This document shows positions 55,481 to 56,316 of a DNA stretch of 64,000 nt, piece after piece. This DNA comes from Eledone cirrhosa (taxonomy: Eukaryota). Below the pieces are notes generated by a model. It saw nothing but the letters and a program-made list of their open reading frames with translations, did no database searches and was not told the origin of the DNA. Within the stretch, counting starts at the first letter, position 1, and each line of letters starts with the position of its first letter. A program made the translations under genes and the position numbers. The stretch is taken from positions 46,810,001-46,874,000 of the forward strand of contig OZ024747.1 in NCBI GenBank assembly GCA_964016885.1, in the 5' to 3' direction.

Positions 55481-56309
55481 TAAATGTAATCTGAGTTTTT
55501 TGAATATTAATAATAACATTCGATTCGTTTTCAATTATGCAAACAAGCCTCAATTTTATAGCCATGTCAGTAGAAGGAACTCGCCATTCTTGCTCTTGTG
55601 TTAGTATGTGAACAGAACTGCAGACACTAATGTTTCTGGGTATCACCCTTCATCAGTACAGCTCACTGTTCACCTGCCAAACTGTCAGAGCTAGTGAAGA
55701 TATATGCTATTTTCAAAAATACACAGTGACTGATCGGCTTGATTTGCATGTTAGCAGACTGGCTGATCAGTCAGATCTGCATATTAGCCGATCCACTGAT
55801 CAGCCAGATTTGCATATCAGCAGACTGGCCAGTGAGTTTCCTGTGTGCGAGCGATAAATGGCCGGCTTTGCCAAATTCAAGTAAAAAAGAAAATTTCGCT
55901 CTACATGGCTGAATACAATAAATGTAATCTGAGTTTTTCGAATATTAATAATAACATTCGATTCGTTTGCAATTATGCAAACAAGCCTCAATCTTATAGC
56001 CATGTCAGTTGAATGAACACTCCATTCTTACTCTTGTGTTGGCATGCGAACAGAACTGCAGACACTAATGTTTCTGGGTATCACCCTTCATCAGTACAGC
56101 TCACTGTTCGCCTGCCAAACTGTCAGAGCTAGTGAAAATATATGGTATTTTCACATGCCAACACAAGAGCAAGAATGAAGTGTTCATTCTACTGACATGG
56201 CTATAAAATTGAGGGTTGTTTGCATAATTGCAAACGAATCGAATGTTATTATTAAAAATCGAAAAACACAGATTACATTTATTGTATTCAGCCATGTAGA
56301 GCGAAATTT

Positions 56310-56316
<7 letters not shown>
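55481..56316 (-). mobile_element. Retrozyme-like 1.5-mer (438-nt period) plus fold-back arm
   Basis: 55481-55715 is repeated at 55919-56153. 56155-56316 is the reverse complement of about 55885-56046. (TA)n on both sides and no ORF. Confidence 0.85.
55618..55661 (-). ncRNA. Type I hammerhead ribozyme; identical copy at 56056-56099
   Basis: Minus strand: CTGTA CTGATGA aGGGT gat ACCCa GAAA CA ttag TG TC TGCAG. All stems present, GUC site. Confidence 0.9.

Follow-up and report, generated by a model that had tools for sequence, protein, structure and literature searches.

What kind of mobile element leaves a tandem repeat with two identical ribozymes on one strand and an inverted arm at its upstream end, and does the ribozyme take part in making such copies? 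These questions are raised by a locus in the window, the 64,000-nt stretch of the Eledone cirrhosa genome analysed here. Our answer, which we hold with a probability of about 0.75, is that this copy is a dead-on-arrival or slowly decaying, non-autonomous non-LTR retrozyme mobilised by a Penelope-like element (PLE). It represents a new family within a known class, and is one of several thousand copies of an ordinary repeat.

Anatomy of the locus

The element comprises a 438-nt unit in 1.54 tandem copies on the minus strand (56153-55480), along which we number the unit as q = 56153 - position + 1, together with an inverted arm on the plus strand. Its parts and flanks are:

55423..55479: (TA)-rich target flank, left
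55480..56153, minus strand: long arm, 674 nt (q1-438 plus q1-236), its 3' terminus being the "short" 3' end of the family
55603..55678, minus strand: terminal type I hammerhead, core identical to that of the upstream one, CUGAUGA at 55656
55623..56060, minus strand: predicted cut-to-cut monomer, 438 nt, 40% GC
55729..55829: imperfect 33-nt repeat, three copies within the body of the unit, more at some other loci
56041..56116, minus strand: type I hammerhead, upstream copy, stem I extended, CUGAUGA at 56094-56088
56150..56153: 4-nt microhomology common to both arms at the head-to-head junction
56150..56315, plus strand: inverted arm, 166 nt (q104-269), a second 5'-truncated copy without the ribozyme core
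56283..56315, plus strand: 33-nt "tail" (q237-269), at this end only
56316..56360: (TA)n target flank, right, common to the next element

The direct repeat (55480-55715 and 55918-56153, period 438) shows 14 differences in 236 nt (94%), none of them within 55610-55671, so that the two 44-nt hammerheads are identical. No ORF of at least 120 aa overlaps the element, and the longest stop-free frame in the doubled unit has 92 codons. The sequence-only reading had described about 1.5 tandem 438-nt units on the minus strand, two identical hammerheads beside diverged repeat sequence and the absence of an ORF, and in all of this it was correct. The inverted arm begins 10 nt beyond the predicted cut site; its alignment to the long arm (56150-56318 against 55882-56050) spans 169 nt at 94%, of which the element portion stops at 56315, and an internal copy of the tail sequence lies at 55885-55917. 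As both flanks are (TA)n, a target-site duplication is unreadable at this locus.

The hammerhead and its predicted cut

Both ribozymes match the type I hammerhead descriptor on the minus strand, with CUGAUGA (q60-66) beginning at 56094 and 55656 and C17 at 56061 and 55623. Stem I (GCUGUA/UGCAGU) is laid out as a proximal helix of 6 bp, an internal loop and a distal helix of about 12 bp, while stem II (GGGU/ACCC with a GAU loop) is followed by GAAA, a short stem III and UC. From the hammerhead consensus, the cut is predicted between q93 and q94, that is, between 56061 and 56060 in the upstream and between 55623 and 55622 in the terminal hammerhead. The loop of stem III is self-complementary (predicted dimer, -8.8 kcal/mol), and substitutions weaken the distal stem I of the terminal hammerhead (MFE -27.4 versus -36.7 kcal/mol). 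Among the copies tallied, 184 of 199 carry an A-A mismatch at the base of stem II, and the 13-nt core is intact in 58 of 90. Folded as a circle, the 438-nt monomer reaches a predicted -144.6 kcal/mol with 67% of its bases paired, the z-score of -6.3 (60 shuffles) being inflated by the internal repeats. In the MFE structure of the monomer CUGAUGA pairs with loop III, the hammerhead fold being 7.9 kcal/mol worse and the probability of stem III 0.0. Since no Rfam hammerhead family matched at gathering score in the window, or at E<=10 within 55000-58200, the hammerhead call rests on motif and pairing. An Rfam match to mir-6302, below gathering score, was rejected as a neighbouring palindrome.

A dispersed family with fixed 3' ends

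The host genome (3.0 Gb) is microsatellite-rich. It contains 1,524 exact matches to a 25-mer of the ribozyme core (control, 0) and 4,579 family candidates; as 22 of 90 independently found copies match this 25-mer exactly, we arrive at a rough total of about 6,000 ribozyme copies. The 199 arms compared differ from the per-site majority by a median of 3.7%, and an older subfamily is present with 202 matches at 80-88% identity. The longest arm seen measures 867 nt, and arm lengths pile up weakly at one unit (13 ends in 410-450 nt, hazard 0.012 versus 0.0065). Contigs from two runs of one sample (type unrecorded) gave short pieces of many copies on 55300-56500, none of them locus-specific.

Alignment of loci L001-L180 to the unit separated 329 distinct arms. 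Their 3' ends concentrate at two sites, q236/241 and q260-273, 30-36 nt apart, and run mostly into (TA)n; their 5' ends are variable. Many other ends are breaks from a SINE-like insert near q202; this repeat, about 180 nt long, sits time and again inside the unit's AT-rich hairpin (about q202-219) with a short duplication, for instance at L060, L261 and L263, among others. The alignments contain 107 head-to-head junctions. Both outer ends survive in 55, which could be scored, unlike the other 52; a short end is matched with a tailed end in 54 of the 55 and with another short end in the remaining one. The junction overlap is mostly 1-4 nt (46/107). The locus in the window matches this anatomy throughout, having a 674-nt long arm with the short end, a 166-nt short arm with the tail and a 4-nt overlap.

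PLE insertions typically comprise partially tandem units, a 5'-truncated copy in inverted orientation and a tail of 30-40 bp that is often confined to a single end (Craig et al. 2021, PMC8557442), and a PLE enzyme is reported to extend both strands, the tail being bounded by two internal start sites (Frangieh et al. 2024, PMC11167929). The copies studied here likewise show a partial tandem with an inverted 5'-truncated copy, a one-ended tail and a microsatellite or AT-rich target. The inverted arm of about 160 bp that had been read as a fold-back cap is real, at 166 nt, but its length varies from copy to copy, which, together with the PLE descriptions (PMC8557442, PMC11167929), identifies it as a second truncated copy made at integration. 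The combination of tandem and fold-back loses its standing as a special architecture, since PMC8557442 already describes such PLE insertions. Fixed 3' ends, variable 5' ends and (TA)n targets constitute PLE anatomy, and we thus regard the element as a non-LTR retrozyme that a PLE enzyme most likely mobilised; its earlier classification as a non-autonomous retrozyme agrees with the copy number, the anatomy and the lack of an ORF.

5' ends at the predicted cut site

We examined the 5' ends of 116 arms from loci L091-L165, which had been found by a downstream pattern, with 3' stubs dropped. In the interval q92-102, chosen after the data had been seen, 16 of the 74 arms at risk ended, against 3.7-3.9 expected (P about 2-4e-6), and q94 was the modal 5' end (7 arms). 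Just upstream of the cut (q74-91) a single end occurred among 58, and a second pile-up, at q103-109 (10/84), has no cut site. Genome-wide, patterns demanding two preceding mismatches gave 74 starts at q94, 10 at q85 and 32 at q120, which are raw counts without denominators, neighbouring 25-mers totalling similarly. On checking, true ends made up 14 of 20 at q94, 2 of 10 at q85 and 9 of 10 at q120, and 14 of the 32 q120 matches belong to one 1.4-Mb cluster. CA precedes 27 of the 74 q94 matches, often as microhomology with the other arm, so that a joining bias may inflate q94, and 7 of the 14 verified q94 ends have no such microhomology. Of 30 arms belonging to the older subfamily, three end before the cut is reached from its upstream side, at q77-83.

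The pile-up suggests that cleaved RNA acted as template in vivo, with pausing or microhomology standing as alternatives, and the frequent truncation at the cut site hints at a ribozyme that is active in the animal. Our literature search, which took in few subscription papers and went without supplements, returned no report of 5' truncations piling up at the cut site of a PLE or retrozyme.

Alleles shared within elements

Subfamily alleles at q179 are concordant within arms in 42 of 45 cases and discordant between arms in only 5 of 69, against 22.9 expected, and neither the upstream nor the terminal tandem position has alleles of its own. Such sharing is as expected if one monomer was copied more than once, the reverse transcriptase either going round a circle or crossing a nick that stem I holds closed. 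At q135, discordance is about 21% (8/38 within arms, 10/48 between), more than a single monomer template predicts, which suggests that two RNAs may sometimes contribute to one element. In 14 of 45 pairs both arms continue beyond the cut, so that templates which stayed uncut, were religated or were jumped would be common too.

Constraint on the ribozyme

Constraint had been proposed from the identity of the two hammerheads, yet this identity is no evidence of it: given 14 differences in 236 nt, the chance of none in 44 nt is P=0.051. In 204 arms, all from loci that non-ribozyme patterns had picked up, divergence is 4.1% in the 46-nt ribozyme and likewise 4.1% in base-matched flanks without polymorphic and CpG sites (P=0.60), which is the very outcome that the sequence-only reading had itself set against its claim, and at the level of copies the claim falls. 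The 13-nt core diverges by 2.9% compared with 3.9% in flanks (permutation P=0.03, Fisher P=0.26); that it lies below all flank sites when polymorphic ones are included (P=0.002) is due to source-lineage variation, not to selection on copies. Exact 25-mer matches (761 upstream, 1,524 core, 1,753 downstream) were not used as a test of constraint because coverage and a common q37 deletion confound them.

Subfamilies differ in stem I at q45, q47, q54, q58, q106 and q107, each time with pairing preserved, and other differences lie in loops; the core shows 0 of 12 differences, which is not significant (P=0.50). A random transition preserves a base pair about half the time, and the pairing-preserving changes therefore lend modest support to a presumed selection on the ribozyme in source lineages. 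A candidate compensatory pair between window copies, C44-G107 versus U44-A107, was rejected, as C44-G107 occurs in 3 copies, U-A in 93 and U-G in 73.

Candidate drivers

The unit itself has no ORF combining reverse transcriptase (RT) and GIY-YIG, by which an autonomous PLE is recognised. Intact PLEs are abundant in the genome, which has many more families of them than the two compared here with the unit. The PLE family found at L042 has at least 151 matches, with several 796-aa open frames among the matches listed; it shares no sequence with the unit in 32 loci examined, and neither does the PLE family of window positions 17131-17520 in 30 loci. A relaxed ribozyme pattern gave 16 matches, all from the retrozyme family itself or its older subfamily, and no partner. 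PLE coding sequence is joined to the 5' junction of the unit at L036 (same strand) and L042 (head-to-head), where it possibly marks co-integration or template switching.

Other reverse transcriptase sequences were also encountered. A young PLE family (L201-L206) has intact 796-residue stop-free frames after an overlapping upstream frame, and no canonical hammerhead was detected in it. Within the window, a frameshifted PLE fragment (16598-17628, plus strand) has 60,740 candidates genome-wide; its end, which we take to be GIY-YIG-like, has no Pfam match, and no canonical hammerhead was found on the strand of this family in 30 loci. A C-terminal fragment of a LINE-type reverse transcriptase with DUF6451 occupies 59132-59827 (minus strand).

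A model of integration and its rivals

We infer transcription, cleavage, circles and a driver enzyme in the following manner. The tandem locus would be transcribed, and its hammerheads would cut after GUC, perhaps as dimers via the self-complementary loop III, releasing a 438-nt monomer; the long stem I would hold its two ends together, and they may be ligated. Acting in trans, a PLE reverse transcriptase/GIY-YIG enzyme would nick both strands of a (TA)n target and prime cDNA internally, one strand using q236-241 and its opposite q260-273. Synthesis of either cDNA may stop, in many cases where cleavage has left a 5' end (q94), or may cross the junction and extend beyond one unit. Joining of the cDNA ends by a few bases of microhomology would generate the partial tandem, the inverted arm and the one-ended tail. 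Weighing against this course are the lack of similarity between the unit and the two PLE families compared, the stem II mismatch and the competing monomer fold, the second pile-up, the older-subfamily ends before the cut, the q135 discordance and the many arms that read through the cut site.

The same PLE-driven family could also be built from an uncut linear read-through transcript with the ribozyme largely idle, the q94 ends then reflecting RT pausing at the end of stem I plus microhomology at the self-complementary TGCA. Such a course agrees with reports that the insertion of an anole PLE in vitro was unaffected by hammerhead mutants and that none of its RNA reads ended at the cut site (PMC11167929), and that 8 of 9 Xenopus dimers were uncleaved (10.64898/2026.07.22.740005); the stem II A-A mismatch, the alternative monomer fold and the second pile-up at q107-109 also speak for it. 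We nevertheless consider read-through rather unlikely, given the sharp edge at the cut (1/58 in q74-91, and 2 true ends at q85 versus about 50 estimated at q94), the half of verified q94 ends (7/14) without CA microhomology, the lack of position-tied alleles, which independent tandem units would accumulate, and the pairing preserved by stem changes between subfamilies.

The copies might alternatively be terminal-repeat debris of an autonomous PLE and not a self-standing mobile family, as the unit resembles a PLE pseudo-LTR in which the ribozyme is followed, 143-179 nt downstream, by two RT start sites, and two loci (L036, L042) abut PLE coding sequence at the 5' junction. This we judge very unlikely: the tandem closes at 438 nt without an ORF, only non-coding body or microsatellite follows q272 at the loci inspected, the unit and the L042 PLE family have no sequence in common, and the retrozyme copies form subfamilies of their own. 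A fold-back or MITE-type DNA transposon, with the inverted repeats as functional ends, would explain why these repeats extend to both outer ends and why targets are TA-rich, but arm lengths vary and fixed, equal terminal inverted repeats are missing; inner ends vary freely, the tail sets the two outer ends apart, many copies are single-armed, the ribozyme is strand-specific and 5' truncation is typical of reverse transcription. We treat that idea as refuted.

Returning to the PLE-mobilised retrozyme, we give even odds to the further proposition that its copies are a fossil record of PLE integration, in which hammerhead-cleaved RNA served as a template in vivo and the two target strands were primed at two RT starts in one event, sometimes on two RNAs, possibly as a loop III dimer. 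Cleaved, circularised templates have been proposed in work on retrozymes (PMC7229834, PMC4209133), whereas for the anole PLE in vitro, cleavage was reported as dispensable, with no RNA ends at the cut site (PMC11167929). If the proposition is true, the hammerhead of PLEs and retrozymes would gain a demonstrated role that in vitro work missed, and ribozyme activity could be assayed from the genome alone in any family. The cut-site pile-up and the near-strict pairing of short and tailed ends tie the retrozyme to PLE integration chemistry in a manner testable in assembled genomes.

Comparison with known systems

RNA circles of retrozymes have been described (Cervera and de la Pena 2020, PMC7229834), and Li et al. 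2026 (10.64898/2026.07.22.740005) have argued that retrozymes originate from PLEs. Cervera and de la Pena 2014 (PMC4209133) had observed truncated PLEs with ribozymes paired on opposite strands and proposed circles, and dimer cleavage of hammerheads, including the study by Lunse et al. on PLE hammerhead dimers, is reviewed in PMC6765202. By the sequence criteria of PMC7229834, our unit is a non-LTR retrozyme, its 438 nt and 40% GC falling within the range of these elements (about 150-450 bp, GC <50%), and it works like a non-autonomous PLE, in line with Li et al. (10.64898/2026.07.22.740005). Non-LTR retrozymes are further characterised by the absence of a primer binding site and of a polypurine tract, by target duplications above 4 bp where these occur, and by self-cleavage and expression as linear and circular monomers.

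As in the metazoan non-LTR retrozymes described, there is a short, low-GC tandem unit with one type I hammerhead each and no ORF, in thousands of copies and with a structured predicted circle, and the A-A mismatch at the base of stem II recalls the U-U of the axolotl HHR_Amex2. Unlike them, our copies, known here from genome sequence alone, are mostly dispersed, 5'-truncated and shorter than two units, and frequently show head-to-head arms and a tail; a word search of PMC7229834 found no "inverted". With endonuclease-bearing PLEs (PMC8557442, PMC11167929) the family shares the partial tandem, the inverted 5'-truncated copy, the one-ended 30-40 nt tail, microsatellite or AT-rich targets and a hammerhead upstream of two RT start sites. 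It differs from them, as described there, in lacking an RT or GIY-YIG ORF and homology to the two autonomous families checked, and in a ribozyme with a long stem I and internal loop instead of the minimal form. Non-autonomous Chlamys PLEs such as MRC1 are also non-coding and head-to-tail with PLE-type ends, but match their autonomous partner at the 3' end (PMC8557442), and according to the abstract of that paper the Chlamys clade is without canonical hammerheads.

Neighbouring hammerhead families

A second family adjoins the element (56357-57239, plus strand), with a unit of about 595 nt and a type I hammerhead that combines a long stem II insertion with a U3-A8 core variant, the latter already known (PMC4209133). 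It has 5,769 exact 21-nt matches, 97-99% identity and arrays of up to five units. Here too the fixed 3' ends are two (b279 and b443-449), but with about 165 nt between them, far beyond the usual 30-40 nt tail, and in the few loci seen each head-to-head pair has one 3' end of each type. A third, head-to-head family (57298-57860) forms a 281-nt fold-back with 1 nt between its arms and a hammerhead in each (57537 minus, 57621 plus). Over the whole window (1-64000), fifteen hammerhead descriptor matches fall into several families, including an opposite-strand pair at 5068 and 5434.
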